The position numbers and the translations under genes are program-made. DNA of 64,000 nucleotides from the IMG/VR virus record IMGVR_UViG_3300045988_124082; one strand, given 5' to 3'. Within the stretch, counting starts at the first letter, position 1, and every line of letters starts with the position of its first letter. Below, piece after piece: positions 10,001 through 36,846 of this stretch. The stretch comes from a virus. The notes under the pieces were generated by a model. The model had not been told where the DNA came from, made no database searches, and saw only the letters and a program-made list of their open reading frames with translations.

Positions 10001-10025
10001 ATATAAGAGAAAGGAAAATAAGACT

Positions 10026-10391: not shown

Positions 10392-10412
10392 CAAAATAGA
10401 AAGGAAATTAAG

Positions 10413-10808: not shown

Positions 10809-10944
10809 ATTTGAAACAGTAATGAAGTTAATTTGTTGGATTGCAGCAGTGACATTGGCATGGATGCACGTTTCAATTGTTGCAGTGATTGCACTTGCAT
10901 TGGTTGGAACTTTTGGAAGCGAGGTTGATTTGAGTGCAAAGTAG
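10801..10944 (+). CDS. Small membrane protein (47 aa)
   Basis: MNRFETVMKLICWIAAVTLAWMHVSIVAVIALALVG. Internal ATG with GGAAGAGAGG upstream. Confidence 0.5.
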   Translation: MNRFETVMKLICWIAAVTLAWMHVSIVAVIALALVGTFGSEVDLSAK

Positions 10945-11266: not shown

Positions 11267-11280
11267 AGAGAGGTGTAAGG

Positions 11281-11598
11281 ATGGAAGAGAAAAGAAAAGT
11301 ATGCTTCGATGATTGCGAAGTTGGCATGTTTTTTAGGATCGATAAAGACTGTCCATGGATGTATGACAATGAGTGGATGGATGGTTTTGATACATTGACA
11401 AACGCAGATGAGTTAAAAGTTAAAATTATCGATAAAGATGCTGATGATAGCAGTGTTGAGATAGAACTTTGGGCAGATGGTCAAAAGACACATATAACAG
11501 ATTGGCTCTATCAGTTTGAAGACGATCCAGAAGACAGAATTGGAAATAACCTTGAGTTTATATTAAAGAGGAAAAATAGAAAAAATAACTATTGGTGA
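11281..11598 (+). CDS. NNYY-tail small protein (family II); tail NRKNNYW
   Basis: KVCFDDCEVGMFFRI; RBS AGAGAGGTG. Confidence 0.75.
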   Translation: MEEKRKVCFDDCEVGMFFRIDKDCPWMYDNEWMDGFDTLTNADELKVKIIDKDADDSSVEIELWADGQKTHITDWLYQFEDDPEDRIGNNLEFILKRKNRKNNYW

Positions 11599-13707: not shown

Positions 13708-13980
13708 ATGTGGGAAAAAGGTACAAGAGTTAGAATTATAAAATCAAACAGACTTATGACGCAAGTTGGTATCATGGGCACTGTGGTTTACATACATAAG
13801 GATGGAAATGATCGTTTTATAGTAGAGTTTGACGAACCTATGGATGGGAATTATATGACTACTTTTTGTGATTGCAAACCGAAGTGTTGGTGGTGGTTTG
13901 ATAATGTTCCGGGGAGAGTTGTTGAAACAGATGGTATAACAATTGAAAAAATAGGAAAAAGAAAAAACAATTATTACTAA
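13708..13980 (+). CDS. NNYY-tail small protein (family I); tail KRKNNYY
   Basis: MWEKGTRVRII...GTVVY...VEFDEPMDG...CWWWF. Confidence 0.75.
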   Translation: MWEKGTRVRIIKSNRLMTQVGIMGTVVYIHKDGNDRFIVEFDEPMDGNYMTTFCDCKPKCWWWFDNVPGRVVETDGITIEKIGKRKNNYY

Positions 13981-13992
13981 GGCGGTGAGAAC

Positions 13993-14340
13993 ATGTGGGA
14001 AATTGGAGATAGAGTGGCTGTTACAGACTTAGGCAAAGTCTCTCAAGAGAATTATGGAATTGAAATAAAGATTGGATACAAGGGAACTATTATCAACTTT
14101 TTAAAGATTGATGTCCCATGGAATTCTGATGAGATAATTAAATTCTTAGTAGAGTTTGACGAACCCATGGATGGACATGATGGAAATGATTTCGGTAAAA
14201 TAAGTGGGAAATCGGGACACTGTTGGTGGATGCGTGGAAACCAAGATAGTAATTTAATCAAATGGCGAGATAGCCGGGATTGTGAAGCACCATTAATATG
14301 TAAGAAAATCATGAAGAAAAGGAAAAACAATTTTTACTAA
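13993..14340 (+). CDS. NNYY-tail small protein (family I); tail KRKNNFY
   Basis: MWEIGDRVAV...VEFDEPMDGHDG...GHCWWM. Confidence 0.75.
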   Translation: MWEIGDRVAVTDLGKVSQENYGIEIKIGYKGTIINFLKIDVPWNSDEIIKFLVEFDEPMDGHDGNDFGKISGKSGHCWWMRGNQDSNLIKWRDSRDCEAPLICKKIMKKRKNNFY

Positions 14341-15597: not shown

Positions 15598-15641
15598 GTT
15601 ACACATTTACATATTCAGGAGATTAAAAGGAGAACAAAATT

Positions 15642-15881
15642 ATGATGATCAATGTAACATTAGCAACAACAGCAGGTAAAAGTCTTGTAACAGTAGAAGG
15701 AAACCAGACTCCATCACAAGTACTTGAAGAGAACAGCGTAGCAACAACAGGAGCTACTGTATCACTCAATATGAGACCACTTGCAGATAATGAAAAAGGT
15801 AAAACTTTTGAAGAATTAGGATGCACAGATGGTGATTCCGTAATGTTATCAGCAGTTGTAAAAGCAGACTCAGCAATGTAG
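15642..15881 (+). CDS. Small protein B1 (79 aa), ThiS/MoaD/ubiquitin-like beta-grasp candidate
   Basis: The pattern V-TL....VTVEG..TPSQVLEE......GATVSLN.....L..LGCTDGDSVMLSAVVKA resembles sulfur-carrier/Ubl proteins. There is no C-terminal GG (it ends KADSAM). Confidence 0.7.
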   Translation: MMINVTLATTAGKSLVTVEGNQTPSQVLEENSVATTGATVSLNMRPLADNEKGKTFEELGCTDGDSVMLSAVVKADSAM

Positions 15882-16510: not shown

Positions 16511-16559
16511 AGTAACTATAGAACACAAGTATTAAAAGGATATAAAGGAGAACAAAATT

Positions 16560-16799
16560 ATGATGATCAATGTAACATTAGCAACAACAGCAGGTAAAAG
16601 TCTTGTAACAGTAGAAGGAAACCAGACTCCAAGTGAAGTGTTAGCTGAAAATAATGTAGCAACAACAGGAGCTACAATCTCTATGAATATGAGACCATTA
16701 AGTGTAGCTGAATTAACTGATACATTTGAAGAGCTTGGATGTAATGATGGTGATTCTATCATGTTATCAGCTGTAGTTAAAGCCGATTCTGCTTTCTAG
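16560..16799 (+). CDS. Small protein B2 (79 aa), paralog of B1 (beta-grasp candidate)
   Basis: The first 24 codons plus the RBS are 100 percent identical at nucleotide level to B1; the remainder has diverged. Ends KADSAF. Confidence 0.7.
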   Translation: MMINVTLATTAGKSLVTVEGNQTPSEVLAENNVATTGATISMNMRPLSVAELTDTFEELGCNDGDSIMLSAVVKADSAF

Positions 16800-16901: not shown

Positions 16902-18626
16902 ATGGAAGAAAGAAAATTTAAAACAAATGACTACGTGGTAGTAAAGAATTGGGATGAATTGGTTGAAGAATATGGATTGGTTGATCCCGAATCTGTTAGA
17001 GAACAGATGAGGAATGATGAGGATTGTTATTGGTCAGAAGAAGAGATTAATGAATACAATCCAGAAATCATTAATGTTCCATGGGGAGCAAGAAAAGCAA
17101 TGATTGATGAACTTGTAACTATGGGATTGATGAAGGTCAAAGAATATGGAGAAGATGGAAGTGTCCAGCTGGAAAGCGATACTTACATTGACAGTATTAT
17201 CCCAGAAGAGATTTTACAGCCTGTAAGCGAAGATGAGGTTAAGAATTATATCTTTTGGCTTAATAAAAAAGATGATGATTTTGTAATGCAGGACTACGAT
17301 TTTGCTCAAGCAAATGGATTATTAACTTATGTAGGATTGGTCAATGGAAGTATTGATTTTATCGGAGGAAACAAAGGTAATGAATTAATTGCTTATTTCT
17401 ATGCAGCATCAATTTTAAGATCAATTGATTTTAATGAGGGAGTTACAGAATATCTAAGCCATTGTCATGAAGTTAGTGTTCATACATTTGACCATTTTTA
17501 CACTGACAGAAAATCACATTTGCAGATTGTAGCGATAAAAGATGTTTCTGAGGATGGAGAAGAAGAACTTGTTAATATGTGGACAGAAAGAGGCTGGGAA
17601 GAAGTTGAATTCCACAACGATAAAGTTTTTAAGGTGTTTACTCATCCTGAGCAGAAAGGAACCACAATTTTCTTAAATGGAGAAAAAGAAGATTATAAAA
17701 AAGACTTTGAAGCTTATGAACTGATCATGCAGATTGTTAGCCATGTTTATGGAGATACAATGCAGGATGTTTTAGAAGTTGTTAGCAATAGAGATAGATC
17801 AGAAGCTATGAATATGATCCGTGATATTTTCTCAGAAGCGGATAAGCAGTATGTGAAAATCAAAAACAAAATTAATATTGAAAACTTCCTAAAGGTTGCA
17901 TCTAAAGGTCAGCAGAAACATTTAGAACGAGAAGTTCAGAATAATCAGGACAGAGTTAATAGCTATAAAGATAATCTCAGACACTCTCTTAAAACATTAA
18001 GAGAGTCACAAGAAAGACTCTTCGGATATTTACATATGAAAGATGATTCCCAGTTCAATGAAGTAAGAGAAATGTTAAACATGATGGGTGATGATTTAAG
18101 TGATTTTAGGTGTAATCCTAGCGGTGATTGGTTTAGCTTTGCAATCGTTCAGCCATTGTTATATTGGGATGATGATATTTACGAAAGAAACTTTGATGAT
18201 GAATACTTTGAAGAAGAGGCTGAATATGAAAAGACGAAAAAAGTATTCGACAAAATCTTTAAGACAAGAGAATACACTTTGTATCTACAGCAAGCAATAA
18301 TGATTGACTTGGTCAATAATAAACCAGTTGCAATGAGAGATTATAATTATACAAATGATATGTATATTCCTAATCCACATTTCCATGAGTTTAACTGTTG
18401 GGGAGCAAATGAAGCAAATTTAATTGAAGCGATTTCAAACAGAGATTATATGTCAATTTTCAATCTTGTTAGATCAGCTGTCGCTGGAATTTCTTTATAT
18501 GATACTTCTGTAGTAGGAGCTTTCTTTAATTATTGTGAAGACAGATTTACAAATAAAAAATGTCTTAAAGTTCCAGGAAGAGAAGAATTTATTTCATTCA
18601 AAGAAGCAAGAGCATTGGAGGATTAA
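16902..18626 (+). CDS. Large hypothetical protein (574 aa); possible E2-like Cys segment near the C-terminus (speculative)
   Basis: ORF plus RBS. Followed 3 nt later by the JAB gene. C-terminal IPNPHFHEFNCWG loosely recalls the E2 HPN...C motif. Confidence 0.7.
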   Translation: MEERKFKTNDYVVVKNWDELVEEYGLVDPESVREQMRNDEDCYWSEEEINEYNPEIINVPWGARKAMIDELVTMGLMKVKEYGEDGSVQLESDTYIDSIIPEEILQPVSEDEVKNYIFWLNKKDDDFVMQDYDFAQANGLLTYVGLVNGSIDFIGGNKGNELIAYFYAASILRSIDFNEGVTEYLSHCHEVSVHTFDHFYTDRKSHLQIVAIKDVSEDGEEELVNMWTERGWEEVEFHNDKVFKVFTHPEQKGTTIFLNGEKEDYKKDFEAYELIMQIVSHVYGDTMQDVLEVVSNRDRSEAMNMIRDIFSEADKQYVKIKNKINIENFLKVASKGQQKHLEREVQNNQDRVNSYKDNLRHSLKTLRESQERLFGYLHMKDDSQFNEVREMLNMMGDDLSDFRCNPSGDWFSFAIVQPLLYWDDDIYERNFDDEYFEEEAEYEKTKKVFDKIFKTREYTLYLQQAIMIDLVNNKPVAMRDYNYTNDMYIPNPHFHEFNCWGANEANLIEAISNRDYMSIFNLVRSAVAGISLYDTSVVGAFFNYCEDRFTNKKCLKVPGREEFISFKEARALED

Positions 18627-18629
18627 AAA

Positions 18630-19595
18630 ATGAGAAAAATTAGAATTGAAGAATTAGATGCACAGAGATTAGTACAAGAAGTGATAGCGAAAGCTATCAC
18701 TTCTATTGGTTTAACCCCAGAAAAATTACAGATGGAAATTAATCCTAATGTAAAACTTAAAGAAGAAGAGAAAATTGAGATTGCTTTTTCAGAAATGGCA
18801 GAAAAGAAAATGTATTATCTCATTCACGAATGTGAAAAAGAAATTGGTTGGCATGGACTTGTCAGTCGAAGCGAAAATGGATTCTATGTAGAAGACATTA
18901 TTGTATTCCCACAGGAAGTTACAGGAGCTACTGTAACATCAGATGATGAGCTATATCCAACTTGGATGCTTAGTCAGCCAGATGAGATTTACAATAAGAT
19001 TAGATTTCATGGACATTCACATGTAAATATGGCAACAAGTCCAAGTGGTGTAGATGATACGTATCAGGAGCAGATTATTCAACAGTTTATGTCTAGTCCA
19101 CTTGATGAAAATAATTTTTACATATTCGGCATTTTCAACAAAAAGGGAAGCTATTGGTTAAATATTTATGACATTTATAACAATAAATTTTATGAGACAG
19201 ATGATATTAGTTATGTTTTTTATCAGTCAGATGAACAGGCATGGGCTAAAGAACAGATTAAAGAGAATGTAAAAGAAGAAGTAGCTGTAAAAACAAGTGG
19301 ATATTATTCTAATGGATATGGTTATAGAGGCGGTGGATACGGAACAGAAGAGCTGTATGATACTTGGAAAAAGAACTATGATAAAAACAAAGGCAAAGAG
19401 AAGCCAAAAAAAGATGAAGCAGAGTTGCGAAAAGAATTAAGTGGAGCAATTATTGCAGATTTAACACCTCCAAAATGGCATAGTAAATGGAGTAAATGTT
19501 TACAGAGGATGATTAGCTGTGATGAAAGTCTTGATGATTTAATTGAAGAGTATTGTATTACTTATCCAGATTATAGTGGAACAAAAAAGAAATAG
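18630..19595 (+). CDS. JAB/MPN+ (JAMM) metallopeptidase domain protein
   Basis: Complete JAMM signature: E in HECEKEIGWHG, then HGHSHVNMATSPSGVDD, which fits H-x-H-x7-S-x2-D. Confidence 0.8.
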   Translation: MRKIRIEELDAQRLVQEVIAKAITSIGLTPEKLQMEINPNVKLKEEEKIEIAFSEMAEKKMYYLIHECEKEIGWHGLVSRSENGFYVEDIIVFPQEVTGATVTSDDELYPTWMLSQPDEIYNKIRFHGHSHVNMATSPSGVDDTYQEQIIQQFMSSPLDENNFYIFGIFNKKGSYWLNIYDIYNNKFYETDDISYVFYQSDEQAWAKEQIKENVKEEVAVKTSGYYSNGYGYRGGGYGTEELYDTWKKNYDKNKGKEKPKKDEAELRKELSGAIIADLTPPKWHSKWSKCLQRMISCDESLDDLIEEYCITYPDYSGTKKK

Positions 19596-19607
19596 AGGAG
19601 GATGATT

Positions 19608-20285
19608 ATGAATACAAGTAAAGTTTTAGAATTTTTTGATGCACAGACATTAGTTAAAAAACCAGTTCATGTAATTGGATGTGGAGCAATTGGCTCAAAT
19701 GTCGCAGAACAGCTTACAAGATTAGGAGTCTCAGTGATTCATCTCTGGGATTACGATCATGTTGAGCCTAAAAATGTAACTAATCAGATGTTCTTTGATG
19801 GGGATATCGGAAAAGCTAAGGTAGATGCAATTGAAAATTTGTGTAAGTCAATTAATCCACAGATTAAAATAATCAAACATGAAAGAGGGATTGATGATCC
19901 ATATATTCTTACAGGATATGTATTCTTATGTGTAGATAATATTGAGCTTAGAAAGAAAATCGTAGAGGCCAATAAGTTAAATCCAAACTGTATTGCGTTC
20001 TTTGATTTTAGAATGAGACTTACAGATGCACAGCATTATTTTGCTGATTGTTCAGTTAAAGAACAGGTTGAAAACTTAATTGGAACCATGAATTTTACCC
20101 ATGAAGAAGCGGCTGCAGCAACTCCTACAAGTGCTTGTGGAGTGGAATTAAGTGTATGCTATACAGTTAAGAATATTGTTTGTTATGGAATTGCAAATTT
20201 TGTTAACTTTTGCCTAGGGAATGAACCAAAACAGATGATTATTACAGATATGAAGACAATGGATGTGACAGTATTCCCTATGTAA
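19608..20285 (+). CDS. ThiF/MoeB/E1-like adenylyltransferase
   Basis: VHVIGCGAIGSNVAEQLTRLGV..IHLWDYDHVEPKNVTNQ: a Rossmann GxGxxG followed by the D-x-D-x-V-E-x-x-N motif. ATG 19608 is preferred over 19602 on RBS spacing. Confidence 0.8.
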   Translation: MNTSKVLEFFDAQTLVKKPVHVIGCGAIGSNVAEQLTRLGVSVIHLWDYDHVEPKNVTNQMFFDGDIGKAKVDAIENLCKSINPQIKIIKHERGIDDPYILTGYVFLCVDNIELRKKIVEANKLNPNCIAFFDFRMRLTDAQHYFADCSVKEQVENLIGTMNFTHEEAAAATPTSACGVELSVCYTVKNIVCYGIANFVNFCLGNEPKQMIITDMKTMDVTVFPM

Positions 20286-20291
20286 GAGGTG

Positions 20292-20567
20292 ATGATCTTG
20301 ATAGAAGAAAAATATAAAGCGGTACCTAAAAATTATAAGGGGATTGTAAGACTTAAGCCAACAATAGCACGTTTCCGCCCTTATTACCATGCGTATGTTA
20401 AGTTGGAGGAGGGCTATCACTATACGGGTAATCCAGATCACACAGTATACGTTGAGTTGTACAAGACTTATCAAGATTTAACAAACAATGGTAGGTGTAT
20501 AAGGGAAGGCCTTATAGAAGAAAGAAGCTTATATGTTCCAAGAGAACGTAAGAATAATTATTGGTAG
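20292..20567 (+). CDS. NNYY-tail small protein (family III, VPKxYKG); tail ERKNNYW
   Basis: Starts 4-7 nt after the E1 stop; the start codon is ambiguous (GTG 20289, ATG 20292 or TTG 20298). KAVPKNYKGIVRL...GNPDHTVYV. Confidence 0.7.
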   Translation: MILIEEKYKAVPKNYKGIVRLKPTIARFRPYYHAYVKLEEGYHYTGNPDHTVYVELYKTYQDLTNNGRCIREGLIEERSLYVPRERKNNYW

Positions 20568-20575
20568 GTGAGAAT

Positions 20576-20848
20576 ATGTGGGAAAAAGGTACAAGAGTTA
20601 AGATAATAGGGGGAGCAAAAATCGGCTTAATGGGGACAGTGGTTGTTAAGTGCACAGAAACCCCTGTCAATGACATTAGAGATCGCTTCTTAGTAGAGTT
20701 TGACGAATCCATGGGTGGACATAGTGGAAATGGAGCTTATGAAGGAAAGCGGGGACATTGTTGGTGGTTTGATTATTGTTTAGAAAAGGTTACTATCACA
20801 GATGGCATAAGCATTGAGCAAGTCAAAAGGAAAAATAATTTTTACTAG
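20576..20848 (+). CDS. NNYY-tail small protein (family I); tail KRKNNFY
   Basis: MWEKGTRVKII...VEFDESMGGHSG...GHCWWF. Confidence 0.75.
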   Translation: MWEKGTRVKIIGGAKIGLMGTVVVKCTETPVNDIRDRFLVEFDESMGGHSGNGAYEGKRGHCWWFDYCLEKVTITDGISIEQVKRKNNFY

Positions 20849-20861
20849 GGGGGGTGATTAG

Positions 20862-21077
20862 ATGTGGGAAGTTGGTGACAGAGTAGTAGTTAGTAGTGCA
20901 TTTAGGCCTAAAGTGAAAGGGACAGTCATTGCTATAGATGCGGAATCTACAATGCCTGTATTGGTTAAAATAGGTGGAATAGGAACAGGTATGTGGTTCT
21001 ATGAAAATGGTGATGATTTAGTTTGGAGTGACATTACTTGCACACGAGTGAAAAAGAGGAAAAACAATTATTATTGA
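20862..21077 (+). CDS. NNYY-tail small protein (family I, short); tail KRKNNYY
   Basis: MWEVGDRVVV...GTVIAID. Confidence 0.75.
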   Translation: MWEVGDRVVVSSAFRPKVKGTVIAIDAESTMPVLVKIGGIGTGMWFYENGDDLVWSDITCTRVKKRKNNYY

Positions 21078-21093
21078 GAAAGGATGATGACAG

Positions 21094-21381
21094 GTGTTTA
21101 AGGTTGGAGATAGGATCGTACTAACAGAAGAAAGCCGTCAAAGCTGCAATATATTTCATGAACATCCGGGAGATACTGCAACGGTTATTGGAGTTTCGAA
21201 AGTATCAAGTAGGTCTGATTATGAATGTGTTTTAGAATTTGATAGACATATTGGTGGACATGATGGGTTAACCGATGCCACAGGCAAGAACGGTCATTGT
21301 GTTATCTATTATTTTGATTCAACACAGTGGGATAAGTATTTTAGGAAAATCCAAAGTAAACGTAAGAATAATTATTATTAA
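21094..21381 (+). CDS. NNYY-tail small protein (family I); tail KRKNNYY
   Basis: GTG start; FKVGDRIVL...LEFDRHIGGHDG...GHCVIYY. Confidence 0.75.
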   Translation: MFKVGDRIVLTEESRQSCNIFHEHPGDTATVIGVSKVSSRSDYECVLEFDRHIGGHDGLTDATGKNGHCVIYYFDSTQWDKYFRKIQSKRKNNYY

Positions 21382-21396
21382 GAAAGAGGTGATCGT

Positions 21397-21713
21397 ATGC
21401 CAGAGGATGTAAAGTACCGTCCAGTTCCTAAAGGGTATACAGGTGTTTTTAGGCTAAGAGAAGATACGACGTCCTTAGCCAATGAGTTTTATGGAGCATG
21501 GGGCATTATAGACGACAAATTTTTAATCGATGAAGATTATTATAATGAAGAAAATGAATTTAAGGGAGATCCCGATCATGTAATTCGAGTAAGTTTTTAT
21601 CCTAGCCTTTTAGATCTGCAAAGAGGTGAAATCTTATTAGAGAAGTAGGAAGAGTGTCTGGGACAGAAAAGTATTGTTATATTCCTTTCAAAAGAAAAAA
21701 TAATTACTATTAA
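21397..21713 (+). pseudogene. Frameshifted family III NNYY-tail gene (or recoding site)
   Basis: Frame 0 stops at 21646-21648. Frame +2 continues ...EVGRVSGTEKYCYIPFKRKNNYY-stop (21711-21713) and aligns with its paralogs. The shift window is about 21628-21648. Confidence 0.6.
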
Positions 21714-21728
21714 GAAAGAGGTAATCAA

Positions 21729-22043
21729 ATGGAAAATAATGGTATATATCCTCCAGTACCTAAGGGATACAAGGGTGTTTTTAGAGTTAGACCTGATATG
21801 ATAGGATCAGATAATATGTTCTATGAAGCATATGGTATTACAGGAAAAGGTATTATAGAAGACATTGATTATTTAGAAGGCCAAGGAGAATTTACAGGAA
21901 ATCCACATCATATAATTAAAGCCATTTTTTATCAAACCTATGAAGACTTAAAGAACAGAGAATGTATGATACAAGGAAGGCCTGTTAAAATAAAAGAACA
22001 CTTACTTTACCCCGTGTCAAACAAGAAGAACAATTACTGGTAG
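21729..22043 (+). CDS. NNYY-tail small protein (family III); tail NKKNNYW
   Basis: YPPVPKGYKGVFRV...GNPHHIIKA. Confidence 0.75.
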   Translation: MENNGIYPPVPKGYKGVFRVRPDMIGSDNMFYEAYGITGKGIIEDIDYLEGQGEFTGNPHHIIKAIFYQTYEDLKNRECMIQGRPVKIKEHLLYPVSNKKNNYW

Positions 22044-22053
22044 GTGATTTAAG

Positions 22054-22323
22054 ATGATAGACGCAAAAGATATTAAAGAGGGTATGAAAATTAAGTATAA
22101 TGGTTGGGAATGGACTATAACAAAAGTGTTTGCAAAATATAATAATGTCTTGGATCTTCGGAATGATTGTATTAAAAAAATCATTGATCAAGATAGTTCA
22201 TTGATTTGGATTGAAGCATCGAAGAGACGCTTTGTGCCTGAATCTATGACTATGGAGTGGTTCTTTAAAGAACTGAAATATGGAACAATAAAGATTTTAA
22301 ATCGTAAAAATAATTATTATTGA
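22054..22323 (+). CDS. NNYY-tail small protein (family IV); tail NRKNNYY
   Basis: ORF plus RBS TAGGTGA. Confidence 0.75.
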   Translation: MIDAKDIKEGMKIKYNGWEWTITKVFAKYNNVLDLRNDCIKKIIDQDSSLIWIEASKRRFVPESMTMEWFFKELKYGTIKILNRKNNYY

Positions 22324-22332
22324 GGTGATGTG

Positions 22333-22623
22333 ATGTATTTAGAAGACATTAAAGTTGGTCAGAAAGTGAACTATCGAGGTCATTCCTACATAATAACTAA
22401 AAATGTTGTAAAGTATCGGGGAATAATTAGACCTTATTATTCTACATATTCGTATATCAAGGAAAGTACAAATTGTCATAGATCACGAATGTATTTTCGA
22501 AGAGTAGAAAATAAAAATGAACCGATTGATGGATTTTGGTTATTATATGACGAGATTGAAGAAAAAATGGATCGAGGGCTTATTAAATTTTTGAACATGT
22601 CAAAGAAAAATAATTATTATTAA
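22333..22623 (+). CDS. NNYY-tail small protein (family IV); tail SKKNNYY
   Basis: ATG 5 nt after GAGGTG. Confidence 0.75.
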   Translation: MYLEDIKVGQKVNYRGHSYIITKNVVKYRGIIRPYYSTYSYIKESTNCHRSRMYFRRVENKNEPIDGFWLLYDEIEEKMDRGLIKFLNMSKKNNYY

Positions 22624-22638
22624 AGGGGGTGCCACAAA

Positions 22639-23940
22639 GTGAATGGAATCAATAAAAGGAAATTAGAACTGTTTATGGATGATCAGCTATGGAGACAAAA
22701 TATTACACATCAGCAAAGCAAAGGTGTACATAGAGATGTATTAAGAATTGTGTGTGATCCAGAATACAAAGCACGGCTTTTAGGAATGATCTGGGATGGT
22801 AATTACAAAATTGCACCTCCGTATGTAGTAGAAATTCCTAAAGACAATGGAAAAGTAAGAGAAGTGTATGTTAATCAGCCAATTGACAGATTTGTTATGA
22901 CACAAATCAATTATGTTTATATGCAATTATATGGTCATATGATTCATCCAAGATGTGTGTCTTATCAGAAAGGAATTGGAGTTAAAAATATCGTAGATGA
23001 TATTTGTATGGAGCTTAAGAAACATCAAGGAGCTGTCGGGTATAAGGTAGACATTAGTAAGTATTTTGACAGTGTAAGCCGTGAGGTCCTTAATGAAATG
23101 ATTGATAAAATTGATACAGGAAGTCCTATTGATCAGATCGTAAGAGATTATTATATGGATGATTGTATCATTGATCAGAAAGGAAATGTTATTGAGAAAT
23201 ACAAAAGTATGACTCAGGGTTGTGCAGTGTCTACATTCTTTGCCAATTGTGTTTTAAAAGATGTTGATGAAGAGTTAAGCAAGATGGATATTATTTATTA
23301 CAGATATTCAGATGATATCTTGATGGTTGGTAAGGATGCAGATAAGGCTTTGAAGATGTTGGGAGAAATGTTAGAAACGAAAGGACTTACATTAAATCCT
23401 AAAAAGGTAGAAACAGTCAGTACAGATCAATGGTTTACATTCTTAGGAGTGCGAATTAATGGACAGAAAAGAAGTTTTTCTGAGAAGAGCTTAAAGGAAT
23501 TTCAGAAACATATTAGAGAATATGTAAATAAGAAAGCAGGAATTGGTAGCGTAAAAGTTGCAATCAGACAAATTAATAAATATCTGTATTTGAATTTCTT
23601 AAGGAATCCTAATGAGTTTGGTTGGGCTGAGTATTTCTTTAGTATTGTGAATGTCGAAGATGATATTAAGACATTAGATATGTGGATTAAAGATACACTC
23701 AGAGGTTTGTATACTGGTAAGAGAGGAAAAGAACAGATAGGTGGACTAGGTGTAAATAAAGTAACTAATGAATGTGGAGTATTAAGAGGGAAGGGCAACA
23801 AAGTAAGTTCAAATTTACGTAAAACAAGAAGTGATAAAGACATTTTAGAAGAAGCAGGATATATCAGTATGAATGAAATGTATCATCAGTTTAGATATAG
23901 CAAAGAATTGTACAGGGCTTCATTGACGGCTTTATCTTAA
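22639..23940 (+). CDS. Reverse transcriptase (free-standing, group-II-intron-like RT with a thumb/X-like C-terminus)
   Basis: RT motifs in order: IPKDNGKVREV (1), DRFVMTQI (2), YKVDISKYFDSV (3), TQGCAVSTFFANCVL (4), YYRYSDDILMVG (5, YxDD), KGLTLNPKKVE (6), FTFLGVRI (7). GTG start behind AAAGGGGGTG, 15 nt after the last NNYY gene. Confidence 0.85.
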   Translation: MNGINKRKLELFMDDQLWRQNITHQQSKGVHRDVLRIVCDPEYKARLLGMIWDGNYKIAPPYVVEIPKDNGKVREVYVNQPIDRFVMTQINYVYMQLYGHMIHPRCVSYQKGIGVKNIVDDICMELKKHQGAVGYKVDISKYFDSVSREVLNEMIDKIDTGSPIDQIVRDYYMDDCIIDQKGNVIEKYKSMTQGCAVSTFFANCVLKDVDEELSKMDIIYYRYSDDILMVGKDADKALKMLGEMLETKGLTLNPKKVETVSTDQWFTFLGVRINGQKRSFSEKSLKEFQKHIREYVNKKAGIGSVKVAIRQINKYLYLNFLRNPNEFGWAEYFFSIVNVEDDIKTLDMWIKDTLRGLYTGKRGKEQIGGLGVNKVTNECGVLRGKGNKVSSNLRKTRSDKDILEEAGYISMNEMYHQFRYSKELYRASLTALS

Positions 23941-23987
23941 GTGTAACCTAACACGAGGTACTTATGTGAAATGTTATAAGTCAAATC

Positions 23988-24075
23988 AGATCCCTAGGAT
24001 ACACGGGTGATTCCATGCATGGTTGATAACCAGCATTCCATCAACCCGTTCCTCCCTGGATCTTATCATCATAAA
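23988..24075 (+). repeat. Hairpin-box unit 1: imperfect ~76-nt hairpin plus ATCATAAA box (24068-24075)
   Basis: AGATCC..AGGA..ACGGGT...ACCCGT.TCCT..GGATCT, then TATC-ATCATAAA. Confidence 0.55.
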
Positions 24076-24160
24076 GGAAATTTAGAAACGTGTTATTAAC
24101 ATGAACATAAGAAAGTTACTATGGACGTTGTATGTGAGACAATGGAATTACATATAAGGC

Positions 24161-24235
24161 GCGTTGAAGCTGCAGGATGACTGGCAATACATTGACCAAG
24201 TCATCCCTGCAGCTCAACCGCTTTATAATCATAAA
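24161..24235 (+). repeat. Hairpin-box unit 2: ~61-nt hairpin plus ATCATAAA box (24228-24235)
   Basis: GCGgTTGAAGCTGCAGGATGACT-loop-AGTCATCCcTGCAGCTCAAcCGC with bulges, then TTTATA-ATCATAAA. Confidence 0.6.
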
Positions 24236-24318
24236 AGAATAAAGGAACATAGCATGATTGTGAGCATACAAACAAGCTAACATGGGCTAAACATACGAGA
24301 CGTTGAATCATACATAAT

Positions 24319-24422
24319 AAGGGCACAGCTGCCTTATGCAGCGGGAAATTAGTCTCCTCGACAATAATTTCACCGCTGCCACAGGCGTGCGTGCCCTTAT
24401 TAATCATAAACCAATAGAGAAA
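24319..24422 (+). repeat. Hairpin-box unit 3: ~80-nt three-segment hairpin plus a 20-nt box ATCATAAACCAATAGAGAAA
   Basis: AAGGGCAC/GTGCCCTT, GCAGCGG/CCGCTGC and GAAATTA/TAATTTC stems. The box at 24403-24422 is identical to 26662-26681. Confidence 0.6.
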
Positions 24423-24459
24423 ACATGTCGCCAATGTAGAGTATGTAGAAAGGAAAATC

Positions 24460-24996
24460 ATGAAAAGTTTATTTAAAGTATTGTATGAGCTGTCACAAGG
24501 AAACACCTTAATGATTAATAGTTGCATGTCTTTTAGAATGACAACTGATCTATACAAAAGACAAGTGAGATTTAAGAAGTATAAGGTTGTTGATCAAGGA
24601 AGCGTAGTAAGTGATGTGACATTGTGTAGTGGAGAGGTTATTGAGTATGATGACTTAATAAAGGAAGGAGATTTAGATTTTATATTACCAATTGAATTAA
24701 ACGAAAAAGAAAATCCATATGAGGTTATTGAATACCTGTATGGATTATTTTATTGTTCAGTTCCTGATAGATCTGCTGTTCAAAAGAAACAGAATTTTAT
24801 AGCAAAAGGATTAAATGATTTTGGGGCAAATGATTTTACAGGAATGAGAAGAAGTGAAATTCAGCCATTGTTAGAACTCTATGTGTTACTCGCTGGAATG
24901 AAAGGATGGATCACTTGGAAAGATGATAAGTTGTTCTTTTGGAAAGGTGAGCATAAGAGTTTGTATATATATAGAAAATGGATTTTAGGTTATTAG
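24460..24996 (+). CDS. Hypothetical protein (178 aa)
   Basis: ORF with RBS GAAAGGAAAATC. First gene after hairpin cluster 1. Confidence 0.65.
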   Translation: MKSLFKVLYELSQGNTLMINSCMSFRMTTDLYKRQVRFKKYKVVDQGSVVSDVTLCSGEVIEYDDLIKEGDLDFILPIELNEKENPYEVIEYLYGLFYCSVPDRSAVQKKQNFIAKGLNDFGANDFTGMRRSEIQPLLELYVLLAGMKGWITWKDDKLFFWKGEHKSLYIYRKWILGY

Positions 24997-25013
24997 GAAA
25001 GGAAGAACGTAAA

Positions 25014-25775
25014 ATGAATGTAGAAAAGAGTTTGGAAAAAGCAGGAGTAGACACAAAGAAATATCCTTCATTAGCTATGCAGAATATTTTAGGATATCAA
25101 GGGAAAGCGTTTGCAGAAAATTCATACCTGTATAGAAAGATCATGGGAGATGGGCATGTGTTTAATCCTTATATACACAGAAGATGGCTTCCATATCAGT
25201 TTATGAATGCTGTCCATTGGACAAGACAGTATTATGCAGAGACTATTGGTTATGTAAAGATGCTTGAAAAAGAATTGATGCGTGGCAATAATGTAGATAA
25301 TTGGAAATATATGTACGATAAATTTGGAAAAGAGCTTAATGCTTTATATACACTCTCAAAAAGAGATAAAAAAGCGTATAAAGAAAGATGGGCTGCTTTT
25401 GGAAGATTAGAAATTTTGAAATATTTCTCTCAAGGGTTTGATTGTGTAGGGATAAATCAAAATACATTTTTGGAAATGAAAAATTTATTAGCGGATGAAA
25501 GATTTGAAGCTGAACGATATTGGCGATATCCTAATTGTTTATTGTATAAACGGCCACAATTTAGAAAAGATTTGGTAACAACAACTTTCCATTCAGGAAT
25601 TTATTTTACATTAAAACATATTATGATGTTTGATTATGAAAAATTACATATGTCTTCATCCCAAAAAGAAAGCCTAAAACGGATTAGAGAAGATTTAATT
25701 AACGGAGATTTCAATTATGAGCAGGCTTTTACAATTATTGAAGATTACGTAGCAAGATATTACAATCCAAGATAG
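25014..25775 (+). CDS. Hypothetical protein (253 aa)
   Basis: Internal ATG behind AGGAAAGGAAG is preferred over 24978, which overlaps the previous gene. Confidence 0.6.
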   Translation: MNVEKSLEKAGVDTKKYPSLAMQNILGYQGKAFAENSYLYRKIMGDGHVFNPYIHRRWLPYQFMNAVHWTRQYYAETIGYVKMLEKELMRGNNVDNWKYMYDKFGKELNALYTLSKRDKKAYKERWAAFGRLEILKYFSQGFDCVGINQNTFLEMKNLLADERFEAERYWRYPNCLLYKRPQFRKDLVTTTFHSGIYFTLKHIMMFDYEKLHMSSSQKESLKRIREDLINGDFNYEQAFTIIEDYVARYYNPR

Positions 25776-25788
25776 AGAGGGGAATTAT

Positions 25789-26286
25789 ATGCCAGAAGAA
25801 GTAAAAGAATTAACTATTAAAGAAGCAGATGAGTTTATTAAAAAGAAAGTAATCGGAGTTCTCATAAAAGCAGATGTAACAATCATAGTAAATGAATTAG
25901 AAGCTATTTATGGAGATTCGTTAGCAAATGGAACGGTTGGAGATTCGTTTTATATTTATAACTGTCCAGAAAATTATGATGAATCAGATTATGAAGAGCT
26001 TGAGTATATTGATTATGATGATATGTATGAAGATGATATTCGTGAAGAGAGAGCTGAAGCAGGAGATTTTAATCTTAAAGTATATAAGTGGTTCATTGTT
26101 GATCCAAGATTTACAGAATTATTAAAAGATTTGGGCGAGATAGTTGCTCCAGATATTAACCTTTGGGGATGTTGTGAAGACATTGAAGACGCAAGCGAAG
26201 CAACTGTAATTGAAGAATTTTTTGAAAGAATGCAGATTCTGTATGGACAAAAGAATGCAATTATTACAGAAAAGCTGAGTGCTTAA
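25789..26286 (+). CDS. Highly acidic hypothetical protein (possible DNA mimic; speculative)
   Basis: ORF plus RBS GAGAGGGGAA. Contains the stretch ENYDESDYEELEYIDYDDMYEDDIREERAEAGD. Confidence 0.65.
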   Translation: MPEEVKELTIKEADEFIKKKVIGVLIKADVTIIVNELEAIYGDSLANGTVGDSFYIYNCPENYDESDYEELEYIDYDDMYEDDIREERAEAGDFNLKVYKWFIVDPRFTELLKDLGEIVAPDINLWGCCEDIEDASEATVIEEFFERMQILYGQKNAIITEKLSA

Positions 26287-26290
26287 ACCA

Positions 26291-26332
26291 ACAAAAGGGA
26301 GATGTACCCTTTGTAGAAATACTTATCATAAA
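26291..26332 (+). repeat. Hairpin-box unit 4a: short hairpin plus ATCATAAA box (26325-26332)
   Basis: ACAAAAGGG-agatgta-CCCTTTGT, then agaaatactt-ATCATAAA. Confidence 0.5.
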
Positions 26333-26337
26333 CCATC

Positions 26338-26454
26338 GAAGAAGGAGGATCTTCAGAACCCTCCGCATTGATTACGTTAAACATCACTTCGTAATGATTT
26401 AACAGCATCAACTGCGAGAGGAGTTCATGAAGATCCTCCTTCTTGAATCATAAA
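26338..26454 (+). repeat. Hairpin-box unit 4b: ~108-nt hairpin plus ATCATAAA box (26447-26454)
   Basis: The 16-bp basal stem pairs GAAGAAGGAGGATCTT with AAGATCCTCCTTCTT. An inner stem pairs ATTACG with CGTAAT. Confidence 0.6.
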
Positions 26455-26550
26455 TACATAGAGGAATACATCAAAGATAAGTTGTTCTACATTTTTTGCA
26501 AGAGATATACTTGCTGATTTAATGAATTGTGTTTGAATCACTCACATAAT

Positions 26551-26681
26551 CGGGAGAAAGGAGGCATAATCTCATCTCCTCCACTGGCAAGCCAGGGAGG
26601 ACTTGATGAGATTACATTCCGCTGCGGCGTCATTGTGCCTCCATTCTCCTGATCATGTTTGATCATAAACCAATAGAGAAA
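26551..26681 (+). repeat. Hairpin-box unit 5: ~99-nt hairpin plus the 20-nt box ATCATAAACCAATAGAGAAA
   Basis: Stems GGGAGAA.GGAGGCA/TGCCTCC.TTCTCC, AATCTCATC/GATGAGATT and CCTCC/GGAGG. Box at 26662-26681. Confidence 0.6.
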
Positions 26682-26742
26682 TATATCACCTCACAATGAG
26701 TTAAATCTGTAACTATTAATTTACATAGAAAAGGAGAAACAG

Positions 26743-27312
26743 ATGAAAGCGATTTTTAAAGGAGAAAAAGTTGTAAGAACTAAATTAACATTAGACACTG
26801 GACTTGAAAGACTGGAAGGATCGGATGTTAGCTATTTTGTGAGACGACCTAAGCTGACACATGAAGTAAGTGAAGAAAAGGGTGGAATCATTTTAGAAAA
26901 GGATCTTTCTTTTAATAAAATCTTACTCTTAAAAGATGCTAATGAAGTGACAGTTGATGAATTTACATTTGTATTATCAGGCATTATTGATTACAACTTA
27001 GATGAAGAATGTGTAGTTTTTTACACAGACGCTTGTTGTTCAATTGAAGATACAGATGGGCAGAACAAAATCGAAGCCTATCATAAACTTTTGGATGCAT
27101 ATGAAAAGCAGGTAGGAACGAAAGAAAGTCAAGAGGAAGAATGCGATTGTGCTTACTGTAATGGAGATTACGTTTGTGCTTTTTGTAGAGATGATGATGA
27201 ATCAGAATTAGATGATGAAGAGGACATCGGAAAGAAAGCAATGGATAATCTAGAAGATCTAAATAAAATTCTTGCAGAGTTCTTCGGGGATATTCCGGGA
27301 TTCAAGTGTTAG
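26743..27312 (+). CDS. Hypothetical acidic Cys-rich protein
   Basis: RBS AAAAGGAGAAAC; CDCAYCNGDYVCAFC. Confidence 0.65.
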   Translation: MKAIFKGEKVVRTKLTLDTGLERLEGSDVSYFVRRPKLTHEVSEEKGGIILEKDLSFNKILLLKDANEVTVDEFTFVLSGIIDYNLDEECVVFYTDACCSIEDTDGQNKIEAYHKLLDAYEKQVGTKESQEEECDCAYCNGDYVCAFCRDDDESELDDEEDIGKKAMDNLEDLNKILAEFFGDIPGFKC

Positions 27313-27328
27313 TTAAAGATTGATATTG

Positions 27329-27359
27329 AGAGAGACACTTCGTATGAGGTGTCTCTTTT
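27329..27359 (+). terminator. Rho-independent terminator
   Basis: AGAGACACT-tcgtatga-GGTGTCTCT followed by T4. Confidence 0.7.
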
Positions 27360-27397
27360 AGTATATAGATTTTTTAGAAAGGAGATGAAAAAGGAAA

Positions 27398-28192
27398 ATG
27401 GCAACAGAGTTTGACAAACGAATGAAAGCTTATGAATGTGTCTCAAGACAGTACTTAACAAGAAGAGTACCAGTTGCAATTAGGGTAGATGGAAAGGCAT
27501 TTCATACATTCACTAGAGGGTTTCAGAAACCATTTGATGAAGTGCTTAGCAACACAATGCAAGCCACAATGATGAAAATGTGTAGACAGATTCAGGGTTG
27601 TGTGTTTGCTTACACACAGAGTGATGAAATTACATTTATTCTTATCGATTATCAGAAGCTAAATTCTGATGGCTGGTTTAACTACCGTACTGATAAGATG
27701 TGTAGCATTGCAGCGAGTATGGCTACTATGGAGTTCAATAAGGCTTTTAGTGCTTTTGTTTATGGATTTAAGGTAAACAAGGGAGAAGACATATCAAGCG
27801 AAGATATGGAAGTGCTTAAGGCCTATGAGAAATCTAAGGAACGTGGAGCTATGTTTGATGCTAGAGCGTTCTCAATTCCAAAAGAAGAAGTCACAAACTT
27901 AATCTATTGGAGACAACAGGATGCTATGAGAAATGCAGTTCAGATGGTTGGACAAGCATTTTATTCTCACAAAGAACTTCAGGGTGTTAATTGTGAAATG
28001 CTTAAAGAAATGTTACTGGCTGATAAGGGAATTGAATGGGATAAGATTCCTGTGAAATACCAGAGAGGCAGTTGTTGTGTCAAGGTTGATGGTGAATGGA
28101 CTATTGACAATAACATTTCTATCTTCAGAGGTAGTGACAGAGAGCAAATTGATAAGCTTGTGTTTGTTGAGAGTGAAGAGGATCAGGAGTGA
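27398..28192 (+). CDS. Thg1-like protein (tRNA-His guanylyltransferase family, 3'-5' nucleotidyltransferase)
   Basis: FDKRMKAYE...RRVPVAIRVDGKAFHTFTRGFQKPFDE...VFAYTQSDEITFIL matches the Thg1/TLP N-terminal catalytic core pattern. Confidence 0.75.
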   Translation: MATEFDKRMKAYECVSRQYLTRRVPVAIRVDGKAFHTFTRGFQKPFDEVLSNTMQATMMKMCRQIQGCVFAYTQSDEITFILIDYQKLNSDGWFNYRTDKMCSIAASMATMEFNKAFSAFVYGFKVNKGEDISSEDMEVLKAYEKSKERGAMFDARAFSIPKEEVTNLIYWRQQDAMRNAVQMVGQAFYSHKELQGVNCEMLKEMLLADKGIEWDKIPVKYQRGSCCVKVDGEWTIDNNISIFRGSDREQIDKLVFVESEEDQE

Positions 28193-28214
28193 TCAGGAAG
28201 GAGAAATATGATTA

Positions 28215-28448
28215 GTGATTTATAAACATGAGAAAAGAACTGTAACGATAGAGGAAATTGAAATTAAATCATGCCCTTTTTGTGGTTCAGATGAAGTAAA
28301 ACCGATTTACTACAAAGAGCAATGGGGATGGTCAAATGCCGAAAACTTTGTTAAATGTTGCAGATGCGGAGCAAAAGGCCCTTTGATTTCAAGAGTTGAA
28401 GGTGACCATACCATTGAATCAATAAAAGCTTGGAATAGAAGAAACTAA
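28215..28448 (+). CDS. Lar-family restriction-alleviation-like zinc-ribbon protein
   Basis: CPFCGS...CCRCGAKGP...SIKAWNRR; GTG start. Confidence 0.6.
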   Translation: MIYKHEKRTVTIEEIEIKSCPFCGSDEVKPIYYKEQWGWSNAENFVKCCRCGAKGPLISRVEGDHTIESIKAWNRRN

Positions 28449-28464
28449 TCAGGAAGGAGGATAA

Positions 28465-29217
28465 ATGGGAGTAGAGACAAAAGAAATCCCATTCTATGAT
28501 GACACTTTGTTAGGTGTTAAAGATGAGGATGGTAAAGTTTGGTTGGCTGTTAGAAAAGCTTGTTTGGATATTGGGTTGTCAAATGAACAGGCTAAAAGAC
28601 AAATTAGAAATATTAGGAATTCCGAACTCTTTAAATCCAAGTGGGGCAAATTCGCCCCAGTTCAAAATGAGGGCGGAAGACAGGTGACTAGAGAAGTAAT
28701 TTGCATCCAAGAAAAATTTGTACCAATGTGGTTAGCTCAAATTACTCTTACGCCTAAGATGAAAAAAGAAAACCCAGAAGCGGTAAGCAAGTTACTCAGG
28801 TATCAGCTTGAAGCTGCTGATGTATTACATACGGCCTTCTATAAAACAGATAGACAGAAAGAGCTGTTACATGAGTCTTTAGGACTGGAAGGCAAAATTC
28901 TTAAAATGGAAGAGCAGATCGTAGCTTTTACAGAAACCATTAAAGAGCAAGCAGAAAGACTTGATAAAGTCATGGACAATATGACTATTGATACTAAAAA
29001 GCAGAGTCGTATTCAGAAAGCAGCAAAGGAAAGAGTAAGTGAATTACTTGGTGGAGCTCATTCAGGGCTTTATAAAGCTAAAGGTGCTTTGTATTTTGCA
29101 AATCTGTGGCATCAGTTTAGAGAACAGTTTGAATGTGGAACTTATAAAGATCTTAGTCCAAACGATTTTGAAGATGCAATTGATTTCATTGAGAGTTGGA
29201 CATATGTAGAAAGGTAG
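28465..29217 (+). CDS. Phage regulatory (antirepressor-like) protein with an ORF6C-type C-terminal domain
   Basis: C-terminal IQKAAKERVSELLGGAHSGLY...YFANLWHQFREQFECGTYKDL is paralogous to the C-terminus of 32793..33530. Confidence 0.6.
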   Translation: MGVETKEIPFYDDTLLGVKDEDGKVWLAVRKACLDIGLSNEQAKRQIRNIRNSELFKSKWGKFAPVQNEGGRQVTREVICIQEKFVPMWLAQITLTPKMKKENPEAVSKLLRYQLEAADVLHTAFYKTDRQKELLHESLGLEGKILKMEEQIVAFTETIKEQAERLDKVMDNMTIDTKKQSRIQKAAKERVSELLGGAHSGLYKAKGALYFANLWHQFREQFECGTYKDLSPNDFEDAIDFIESWTYVER

Positions 29218-30139: not shown

Positions 30140-30289
30140 GGGGACATAGCTTAATAGGTAAAGCAAAACTACATTCTTCCATAAAGAACTTAAAACTAAA
30201 ATTTTCATATTAAATATAAACATTTTGTACCTCCCTATTGTAATAAAATAACACTTATATTTATGTGGGTTCGAATCCCACTGTCCCCA
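30140..30289 (+). tRNA. tRNA-like gene with an aberrant ~95-nt AT-rich middle; anticodon not assignable
   Basis: 7-bp acceptor stem GGGGACA/TGTCCCC. D arm GCTT-AATAGGTA-AAGC (30149-30164). T arm GTGGG-TTCGAAT-CCCAC (30265-30281). Discriminator A, no encoded CCA. I could not fold a 5-bp anticodon stem in 30166-30259. Confidence 0.45.
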
Positions 30290-36645: not shown

Positions 36646-36712
36646 ATACATAAAGAAACTAATCGAGTATCAGATTTAGGATACAAGGCAGTATTAACCA
36701 CAAAGTAATTAG

Positions 36713-36766
36713 AAAACCGGCGATTGGAATCTACCACAGGAAACATTCCAATCGCCGGTTTTTTTC
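36713..36766 (+). terminator. Strong Rho-independent terminator
   Basis: 14-bp stem CCGGCGATTGGAAT/ATTCCAATCGCCGG followed by T7. Confidence 0.85.
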
Positions 36767-36846
36767 TAATTACTAAGATCATAAACAAAATAAAGGAAGA
36801 TACCACACTGATGAGTATTCTGTTTAAAAGAAAAGGAGATTACATA

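Follow-up and report, generated by a model that had tools for sequence, protein, structure and literature searches.

Structured non-coding RNA arrays beside a UG27-type reverse transcriptase in a phage genome, with hairpins proposed to template short single-stranded DNAs

Introduction

The 64,000-nt stretch of IMG/VR virus record IMGVR_UViG_3300045988_124082 that was analysed here (the window) contains a 519-nt gap (23941-24459) without a credible open reading frame (ORF), located directly after the stop codon of a reverse transcriptase (RT) gene. An earlier interpretation made without database searches (the sequence-only reading) had described this gap as a cluster of three hairpins. The present study identifies it, with high confidence, as array 1 of the non-coding RNA (ncRNA) arrays of a phage UG27 RT system, composed of the RT, array 1, a small accessory protein (sORF), a large accessory protein (bORF) and array 2, in which the hairpins would, by homology, template single-stranded DNA (ssDNA). 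The locus joins the UG27 RT-associated ncRNA arrays already described, with minor clade-specific variations.

Most UG27 RTs belong to gut phages whose hosts are Bacteroidota and Bacillota; two proteins without an assigned function accompany them, and the RT is followed by a putative ncRNA predicted 'with three long stem-loops' (Mestre et al. 2022, PMC9226505). According to the 'Minerva' preprint (24 September 2026), the region is a variable array of ~150-nt units, with length modes of 149 and 167 nt, and neighbouring gaps sometimes hold extra units. Every unit combines a pseudoknot and a basal hairpin with an asymmetric internal loop, in which AUCNNNNNNNUANAG and UUYA frame a central hairpin of diverse sequence (bioRxiv 10.64898/2026.09.22.753630). 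In five heterologously expressed systems, ssDNAs of 50-100 nt needed the RT, sORF and bORF, and mapped to the central hairpins, starting at AUC and ending after UUYA (bioRxiv 10.64898/2026.09.22.753630). The discrete products published for these homologous systems are ssDNAs, not small RNAs; the preprint assigns them no function and found in them no complementarity to either phage or host (bioRxiv 10.64898/2026.09.22.753630).

UG27 is the one large group of UG/Abi RTs carried mainly by phages rather than defence islands, and its complementary DNA (cDNA) products have been seen only recently. The discovery of the system precedes the present locus, which opens no new category. The locus provides a well-resolved Bacillota-type example, in a phage of ~130 kb, with five units in two arrays and explicit predicted cDNA coordinates. 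It adds the clade-specific box AUCAUAAA-N4-5-UANAG with a longer spacer, as well as a covariation-backed pseudoknot and basal stem, and offers a useful setting for testing what determines where reverse transcription starts and stops, as well as for asking about the role of the hairpin DNAs.

Reverse transcriptase and accessory proteins

The RT gene (22639..23940, + strand) has a GTG start and encodes a protein of 433 aa with the catalytic motif YSDD. The best match was the PADLOC model RT_UG27 (E=1.3e-164), RT residues 5-431 aligning with profile positions 2-419 of 420, followed by RT_UG26 (9e-52), UG17 (9e-30) and Drt9 (1e-28), while Pfam RVT_1 was matched at E=5.6e-21. The active site (Y223-S224-D225-D226, in RYSDD) was unchanged across 19 aligned homologues. 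According to these profile matches, the enzyme is a member of the UG27 group within the class 2 UG/Abi reverse transcriptases.

The locus was found on ten IMG/VR viral contigs of 70-134 kb, with RT identity of 95-99%, and phage replication genes are encoded within the window. Distant relatives were found in metagenome-assembled genomes (MAGs) of Clostridia, Christensenella and Lachnospiraceae. The context of the locus is a phage, which fits the UG27 pattern of phages or prophages with Bacteroidota or Bacillota hosts.

Judging from position and conserved sequence blocks, the ORF pair downstream of array 1 is the pair of accessory proteins conserved beside UG27 RTs, yielding the three-protein set of RT, sORF and bORF. 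The sORF gene (24460..24996, + strand) encodes 178 aa with the conserved blocks NPYE.IE.LY..SVP and FFWKG...YR.WIL; its homologues directly adjoin UG27 RTs in loci L011-L013, L015-L017 and L020, at RT identities down to 36%. The bORF gene (24978..25775, + strand) opens at 24978, with the homologue-conserved start methionine at 25014 (253 aa), and carries the blocks IM.DG.VFNPYIHRRWLP.QF and SGAYYTLKH; its homologues adjoin sORF in L011-L017 and L020. Overall, homologues of sORF and bORF flank UG27 RTs in 7-8 independent loci, where RT identity ranges from 84% down to 36%. Neither protein had a match in Pfam or PHROG, which agrees with what has been published for the UG27 accessory proteins.

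Array structure and unit anatomy

The gap folded with a minimum free energy (MFE) of -164.6 kcal/mol, compared with -114.7 ± 6.5 kcal/mol for shuffled sequences (z = -7.7), and none of the 100 shuffles was as good. It is considered non-coding because close relatives (95-99% RT identity) carry indels of 1, 2 and 4 nt within it. The three long imperfect hairpins of the sequence-only reading were recognised again: the bounds of the first were kept (23988-24063), and those of the second and third, initially placed at 24161-24221 and 24319-24398, were extended to 24153-24227 and 24315-24402. As claimed, the stems share no sequence with one another, and each hairpin is followed at a distance of 0-4 nt by the octamer ATCATAAA (24068, 24228 and 24403). 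The stems also share no sequence with the remaining window. This octamer recurs in a second gap (26287-26742) and has 17 copies in the window (8.9 ± 2.8 expected), a number reached by 0 of 100 shuffles; the extended motif ATC[AG]TAAA-N3-7-T[ATG]NAG occurs nine times in the window and 1.2 times in shuffles.

Array 1 is composed of three abutting units of 159-172 nt, separated by linkers of 1-3 nt, and two further units constitute array 2 (26294-26707). A common layout, with unrelated stems, emerged from the folds of 20 units at six loci, namely the window units and the matching gaps of L011-L015. At the 5' end of the unit lies a mini-hairpin with a stem of 3-5 bp and a loop of 6-7 nt (seen in 17/20 mini-unit folds), followed by the 5' strand of basal stem P1a (6-8 bp), a purine-rich junction of 2-3 nt (mostly GAG, GAA or AAG), the 5' strand of P1b (6-9 bp) and a short loop with (A/U)UYA, mostly AAUCA. 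The central hairpin, whose sequence is unit-specific, spans 60-125 nt among the 20 units and 75-115 nt in the five window units. On its 3' side is the box AUCAUAAA-N4-5-UANAG-AAA, and 3 nt after UANAG a box of 5-7 nt is complementary to the mini-hairpin loop, forming a pseudoknot. A two-part basal stem (P1a-GAR/GA-P1b) is completed by the 3' strands of P1b and then P1a, with a GA junction between them. An asymmetric internal loop encloses the central hairpin, its 5' side carrying (A/U)UYA and its 3' side AUCAUAAA-N4-5-UANAG.

The two-part basal stem, the mini-hairpin and the pseudoknot go beyond the earlier description, the other elements of which find a place in this layout. The 'GAAAYAT' boxes reported after the octamers are real, and combine the end of the UANAG block with the pseudoknot's 3' strand; the box GACGTTG noticed upstream in units 2 and 3 (24124 and 24299) is the 5' strand of the basal stem. 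ATAAG/CTTAT flanks, described at the base of every stem, are present in units 2 and 3, while unit 1 has AGATCC/GGATCT instead. The broader proposal is supported: variable stems between conserved flanks denote elements that are recognised in the form of folded nucleic acid and have a link with the neighbouring RT.

All five window units, delimited by their folds, lie on the + strand. Unit 1 (23946..24111, 166 nt) begins with a mini-hairpin at 23946-23959 and has a 7-bp pseudoknot between 23949-23955 and 24089-24095; P1a pairs 23961-23967 with 24105-24111, P1b pairs 23971-23976 with 24097-24102, and the motif AUCA (23985-23988) and the 3' motif ATCATAAAGGAAATTTAG (24068-24085) border the central hairpin at 23988-24063. 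Unit 2 (24115..24273, 159 nt) has its mini-hairpin at 24115-24126, its pseudoknot between 24119-24123 and 24248-24252, P1a between 24127-24134 and 24265-24273, and P1b between 24139-24143 and 24257-24261, with AUUA at 24147-24150, the central hairpin at 24153-24227 and ATCATAAAAGAATAAAG at 24228-24244. Unit 3 (24275..24446, 172 nt) comprises a mini-hairpin at 24275-24288, a pseudoknot (24280-24284 with 24424-24428), P1a (24291-24296 with 24441-24446), P1b (24300-24305 with 24432-24437), AUCA at 24307-24310, the central hairpin at 24315-24402 and ATCATAAACCAATAGAG at 24403-24419.

In array 2, unit 4 (26294..26490, 197 nt) has a mini-hairpin at 26294-26312, a 6-bp pseudoknot (26301-26306 with 26467-26472) and P1a at 26313-26318 with 26485-26490, the central hairpin (26339-26444) lying between AUCA (26325-26328) and the 3' motif (26447-26463). 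The copy of ATCATAAA at 26325 was evaluated as a separate unit and rejected, being the 5' AUCA loop motif of unit 4. Unit 5 (26498..26707, 210 nt) includes a mini-hairpin at 26498-26514, a pseudoknot (26504-26509 with 26682-26687), P1a (26516-26523 with 26700-26707), AUCA at 26537-26540 and the central hairpin at 26544-26658; its 3' motif ATCATAAACCAATAGAG (26662-26678) is the same as that of unit 3.

The number of units ranges from 3 to 5 among relatives, and the more distant UG27 loci L016 and L017 carry at least 7 (7-8), with the same layout and with UUCA as 5' motif. Array 1 of L011 (84% RT identity) has two units, compared with three in the window, and its unit 1 (L011 6303-6461) is a mosaic of window units 1 and 2: the mini-hairpin, pseudoknot and basal stem match window unit 1, while the central hairpin (GUUGAGCUGCAGGA...) and the box AUCAUAAAAGAAUAAAG match window unit 2. 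Recombination between units therefore occurs.

Outside the arrays, the motif at 36440 and at 47280 (- strand) had no substantial adjacent hairpin, and that at 39897 (- strand) had only a weak, diffuse fold nearby (span 121 nt, 28 bp, MFE -16.9). The intergenic region 36646-36847 (+ strand) contains a near-perfect inverted repeat of 27-30 bp (36704-36774), followed by AAG-ATCATAAA-CAAAA-TAAAG-GAAGATACC, which equals the 3' box of the array units. With a single 6-bp basal helix and no in-register pseudoknot, this element could be a sixth unit that is orphaned or degenerate, or the likeness may be due to chance; it also resembles a bidirectional terminator. In relative L086, the 14-nt loop is exactly inverted (CTACCACAGGAAAC vs GTTTCCTGTGGTAG).

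Covariation and sequence drift

Because the units differ in sequence, pairing was assessed with an own-vs-cross test, in which the strands of each unit were confronted with their own partners and with those of the other units through an identical search. Across the 20 units, the basal stem duplex averaged -13.3 kcal/mol with the own partner and -5.2 ± 2.2 kcal/mol with cross partners; the own 3' flank ranked first in 18/20 units, and the observed mean was reached by 0 of 20,000 permutations (p<5e-5). In the window, the own flank ranked first (of 20) for unit 1 (P1 duplex, -12.8 kcal/mol), as well as for the basal duplexes of unit 2 (-13.2 kcal/mol, with compensatory changes in relative L004), unit 3 (-13.6 kcal/mol, with a G-C to A-U double change at one pair), unit 4 (-16.6 kcal/mol) and unit 5 (-14.7 kcal/mol). 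For the pseudoknot, windows of 11 nt ending 3 nt before P1a were compared with windows of 9 nt starting 2 nt after UANAG. In-register contiguous Watson-Crick pairing reached 5.3 bp with the own partner vs 2.9 bp with cross partners (0/50,000 permutations, p<2e-5), through at least 10 different sequence pairs. Basal stem and pseudoknot are supported by covariation, and the covarying strands lie about 130-190 nt apart.

In the close relatives, nucleotide diversity (pi) was 0.018 and 0.016 in the flanks, 0.010 at RT codon positions 1+2 and 0.03-0.08 at third codon positions, whereas central stems reached 0.057 and 0.035, ~3x the flanks. The helices of the central hairpins nonetheless remained 93-100% paired, and the compensatory changes that the sequence-only reading had suggested seeking in related phages were found, three pairs being changed on both sides (e.g., GCGCGUUGAAGC/GCUCAACCGC to GACCGGAAGC/GCUUCCGGUC in L004). 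In the close-relative covariation count, two unit 1 basal helices are to be disregarded, since they stand one column out of register. G-U pairs were kept on the + strand; together with the covarying pseudoknot, this argues that the units act as RNA.

These data bear on the alternative that the hairpins act as DNA, either as cruciform or single-strand recombination sites (attC-like, or similar to IS200/IS605 ends) or as replication or packaging signals. An RNA-fold signature such as the covariation of pseudoknot and basal stem over that distance, the retention of G-U pairs on the + strand and the single-copy nature of the elements, which are not mobile repeats, all speak against a DNA-level role, even though the hairpins are long inverted repeats with bulges, the L011 mosaic shows recombination between units, and a tyrosine recombinase (a generic phage-type integrase, and the only recombinase) is encoded at 39974-40963, ~13 kb from the nearest array. 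Moreover, neither an integron integrase nor a Y1 transposase was found near the arrays, here or in the four syntenic relatives L011-L014, and the attC-like and IS200/IS605-like options offered by the sequence-only reading were dropped for want of such neighbours. A role as DNA sites is thus regarded as very improbable.

Probable transcription unit

All the genes of the series RT-array1-sORF-bORF-ORF165-array2-ORF189 share the + orientation. A scan of 20000-28500 returned a sole terminator-like site on the + strand, the first after the RT, at 27323..27364, where the transcription unit likely ends. Since the genes are co-oriented and the first + strand terminator-like site is at 27323, we infer that the arrays are co-transcribed with the operon. 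ORF165, a conserved ORF of 165 aa between bORF and array 2 (25789..26286, + strand), occupies the same position in L011-L014, has no counterpart between bORF and the second array in L015, and is not among the known UG27 components. ORF165 and ORF189 were also considered as duplicated accessory genes, a hypothesis rejected because neither is similar to sORF or bORF.

The same scan addressed whether the hairpins are ordinary intrinsic terminators or attenuators, a behaviour that the sequence-only reading had itself contemplated and that did not emerge. Their stems are GC-enriched (0.42-0.50 vs 0.35 for the window) and are placed after a stop codon, as terminators could be, but a T-run follows 0/5 hairpins, the A-rich AUCAUAAA being found instead, and no + strand terminator was found in 20000-27322. 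Furthermore, three hairpins in tandem, each followed by a conserved A-rich box, do not fit this function. Terminators are excluded on account of the missing T-runs, and the probability left to this explanation is marginal.

Proposed reverse transcription of the central hairpins

If the locus operates like the expressed homologous systems, the arrays would be transcribed with the operon, and the RT, sORF and bORF together would recognise the unit scaffold, which would present the unit-specific central hairpin as a template. Reverse transcription would begin at the AUC immediately downstream of the central hairpin and would end beyond the UYA motif that precedes this hairpin, so that every unit would yield one short minus-sense ssDNA, which would refold as a DNA hairpin. 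The predicted cDNA templates span 23985-24070 (86 nt) in unit 1, 24147-24230 (84 nt) in unit 2, 24307-24405 (99 nt) in unit 3, 26325-26449 (125 nt) in unit 4 and 26537-26664 (128 nt) in unit 5. The corresponding minus-sense cDNAs are predicted to fold as stable DNA hairpins (z = -4.4 to -10.8).

The correspondence with the published UG27 arrays encompasses the RT family, the two domain-less accessory proteins and the phage context. It extends to tandem units, conserved in structure and diverse in sequence, placed after the RT and in a neighbouring gap and varying in number, and to the basal hairpin, the pseudoknot and the internal loop, with AUC...UANAG on the 3' side and UYA on the 5' side of a variable hairpin. 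AUC followed by UANAG, in the expected order and place, was found in all five window units, and the units of array 1 (159-172 nt) are near the published modes of 149 and 167 nt. Unlike the published systems, the present locus has a spacer of 9 nt (9-10 nt in L015-L017) instead of 7 nt, an AUC extended to the clade-specific octamer AUCAUAAA, AUCA or AUUA instead of UUYA as the 5' motif, longer units in array 2 (197 and 210 nt), and ORF165 as an additional conserved ORF that separates bORF from the second array.

Some observations weigh against a function as cDNA templates or against the strength of the fold evidence. The published AUC-N7-UANAG has no literal occurrence in the window units, the spacer from AUC to UANAG being 9 nt in four of them and 10-12 nt in unit 1, depending on whether UUUAG or UAGAA is considered; likewise, the 5' motif is AUCA in units 1, 3, 4 and 5 and AUUA in unit 2, whereas the published one is UUYA. 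The predicted products of array 2, at 125 and 128 nt, exceed the reported 50-100 nt, and cDNA synthesis at this locus, together with its boundaries, is carried over from the five tested homologous systems. As for the fold, MAFFT alignments of full units and of apex-removed units brought at most 9-11/20 sequences into a common stem register and gave no covariance model, hence the own-vs-cross pairing tests used in its place. Within the near-identical relatives covariation is weak, consisting of four cells, and 8/500 shuffles scored as high.

Motif variation in other loci puts the departures in context. Most of the 20 units retain the UYA core, and a literal UUCA is seen in L017 and in one unit of L015; L015-L017, which are Clostridia-type MAGs, present AUC[AG]UAAA with a spacer of 9-10 nt, and L020 has AUG-N7-UAUAG. 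From these sequences, the longer spacer and the AUYA 5' motif look like clade variants.

The departure of the motif spacing from the published template motif is also a point for a different explanation, according to which the units are not reverse transcribed in this clade but work as structured RNAs, either binding or regulating the RT complex or the operon, for instance in the role of scaffold, of translational coupler or of RNase III processing and stabilising site between cistrons. The arrays lie between cistrons of one co-oriented operon, the ribosome-binding site (RBS) of sORF is 3 nt after unit 3, and long imperfect hairpins resemble RNase III sites. However, scaffold, motifs and the three proteins are shared with systems in which the hairpins demonstrably serve as templates, the RT active site is intact, and simple processing sites need neither a covarying pseudoknot nor a two-part basal stem with two conserved loop motifs. 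A purely regulatory role is consequently judged unlikely, and the identification as a templating UG27 array is preferred.

Comparison with other reverse transcriptase systems

Among the analogies offered by the sequence-only reading, the retron msr/msd was the closest in mechanism, because there too structured RNA next to an RT templates short ssDNA; however, the locus is not a retron. The RT scored 71.6 bits with the NCBIfam model retron_St85_RT (cutoff 235), and the PADLOC retron RT was matched at E=9e-17 vs 1e-164 for UG27. The architecture is also different, the units being downstream of the RT, five in two arrays, each closed by its own basal stem. Retrons and UG27 systems both have a structured RNA beside the RT that is partly copied into short, abundant, hairpin-forming ssDNA, and in both the RT recognises RNA structure flanking the template. 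Retrons, however, belong to another RT clade; their msr-msd is single, precedes the RT and has a1/a2 repeats, with a 2'-5' branch at a priming G, whereas in the present locus the RT is followed by five units, tandem or split, and two accessory proteins would be needed.

DRT2 (UG2), DRT9 (UG28) and DRT10 (UG17) are also based on class 2 UG/Abi RTs (PADLOC UG17 E=9e-30, Drt9 E=1e-28 for the present RT), and possess an adjacent structured ncRNA with a pseudoknot, which serves as a template there. Unlike UG27, they function in host defence, with one ncRNA upstream of the RT and concatemeric or homopolymeric cDNA, while UG27 systems are phage-borne, with arrays and short discrete hairpin cDNAs.

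Diversity-generating retroelements (DGRs) share with the present locus a phage-encoded RT, a nearby non-coding template RNA and hairpins, but their RT belongs to another family. A DGR was rejected since no pair of template and variable repeats (TR/VR) was found in the window, and the comparison yielded no Avd. The sole repeat of at least 100 nt is a direct repeat of 168 nt with 85% identity (15612-15779 and 16530-16697), whose 25 mismatches involve all four bases; not being A-specific, they indicate that this is not a TR/VR pair. The repeat spans the RBS and the N-terminal coding part of two paralogous small genes (MMINVTLATTAGKSLVTVEGNQTP...).

A group II intron was rejected as well, with no Rfam group II match at the gathering threshold or at E<=1, and with 124 bits on TIGR04416 (cutoff 300). 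The Rfam search gave only chance matches of miRNA precursors to unit 3, plus a tRNA elsewhere in the window, and a nucleotide search of a phage collection gave no match.

Possible function of the products

As a working guess, it may be the shape of the ssDNA products that matters, as it would if they bound or decoyed a host protein, and not base-pairing with a target. A more specific and tentative proposal, which we regard as possible though doubtful, is that the central hairpins can be exchanged like cassettes while the scaffold stays constant, selection acting on their shape and not on their sequence, and that they constitute a small evolvable repertoire of ssDNA hairpins serving as protein-binding decoys or inhibitors. 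The cassette model is consistent with the drift of the central stems, which proceeds near the rate of third codon positions while they stay paired (95-99% relatives), and with L011, where the hairpin and 3' motif of window unit 2 are placed inside the scaffold of unit 1. The central hairpins had no complementarity elsewhere in the window, the best matches being 10-13 nt long with E>=0.05. A function as restriction-site decoy found no support. Outside the stems, the window shows no avoidance of the palindromic hexamers that they contain (CCTAGG, CTGCAG, CAGCTG and others), and the words that are strongly avoided, CGCG, GCGC and AACGTT, have no enrichment in the stems, except for one GCGCG in unit 2. 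If the cassette model were true, the phage would make five ssDNA hairpins from this locus, with host defence or DNA-repair factors as possible targets, and the composition of the array would track host range.

Other features of the window

One gene downstream of array 2, and in the same place in L011, the ORF at 27398-28192 (+ strand) encodes a Thg1-like tRNA-His guanylyltransferase, belonging to a 3'-5' polymerase family (PHROG 4717, E=6e-78). A tRNA-like gene at 30140-30289 (+ strand) scored 43.7 bits on the Rfam tRNA model, with intact acceptor, D and T arms; its anticodon arm is 93 nt long vs 15 nt in the model, corresponding to an insertion of ~78 nt, and the gene was not called by ARAGORN.

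Upstream of the RT, the block 16902-20285 (+ strand) encodes proteins of 574 and 321 aa and a ThiF/E1-like protein of 227 aa. Its position is kept, the block being full in L011-L014, while L015 has ORFs of 286 and 225 aa instead. Families of direct repeats of 46-53 nt, with 62-91% identity, occur at 8800-11400, 13800-14200 and 20687-20732 within runs of small tandem ORFs of ~100 aa, a pattern that points to small paralogous genes arrayed upstream of the RT region.

Lastly, the DNA polymerase is apparently split between two ORFs on the + strand, at 51443-52948 and 55313-56707, which are ~2.4 kb apart and match the N- and C-terminal parts of PHROG 405, an arrangement that suggests an intervening element.

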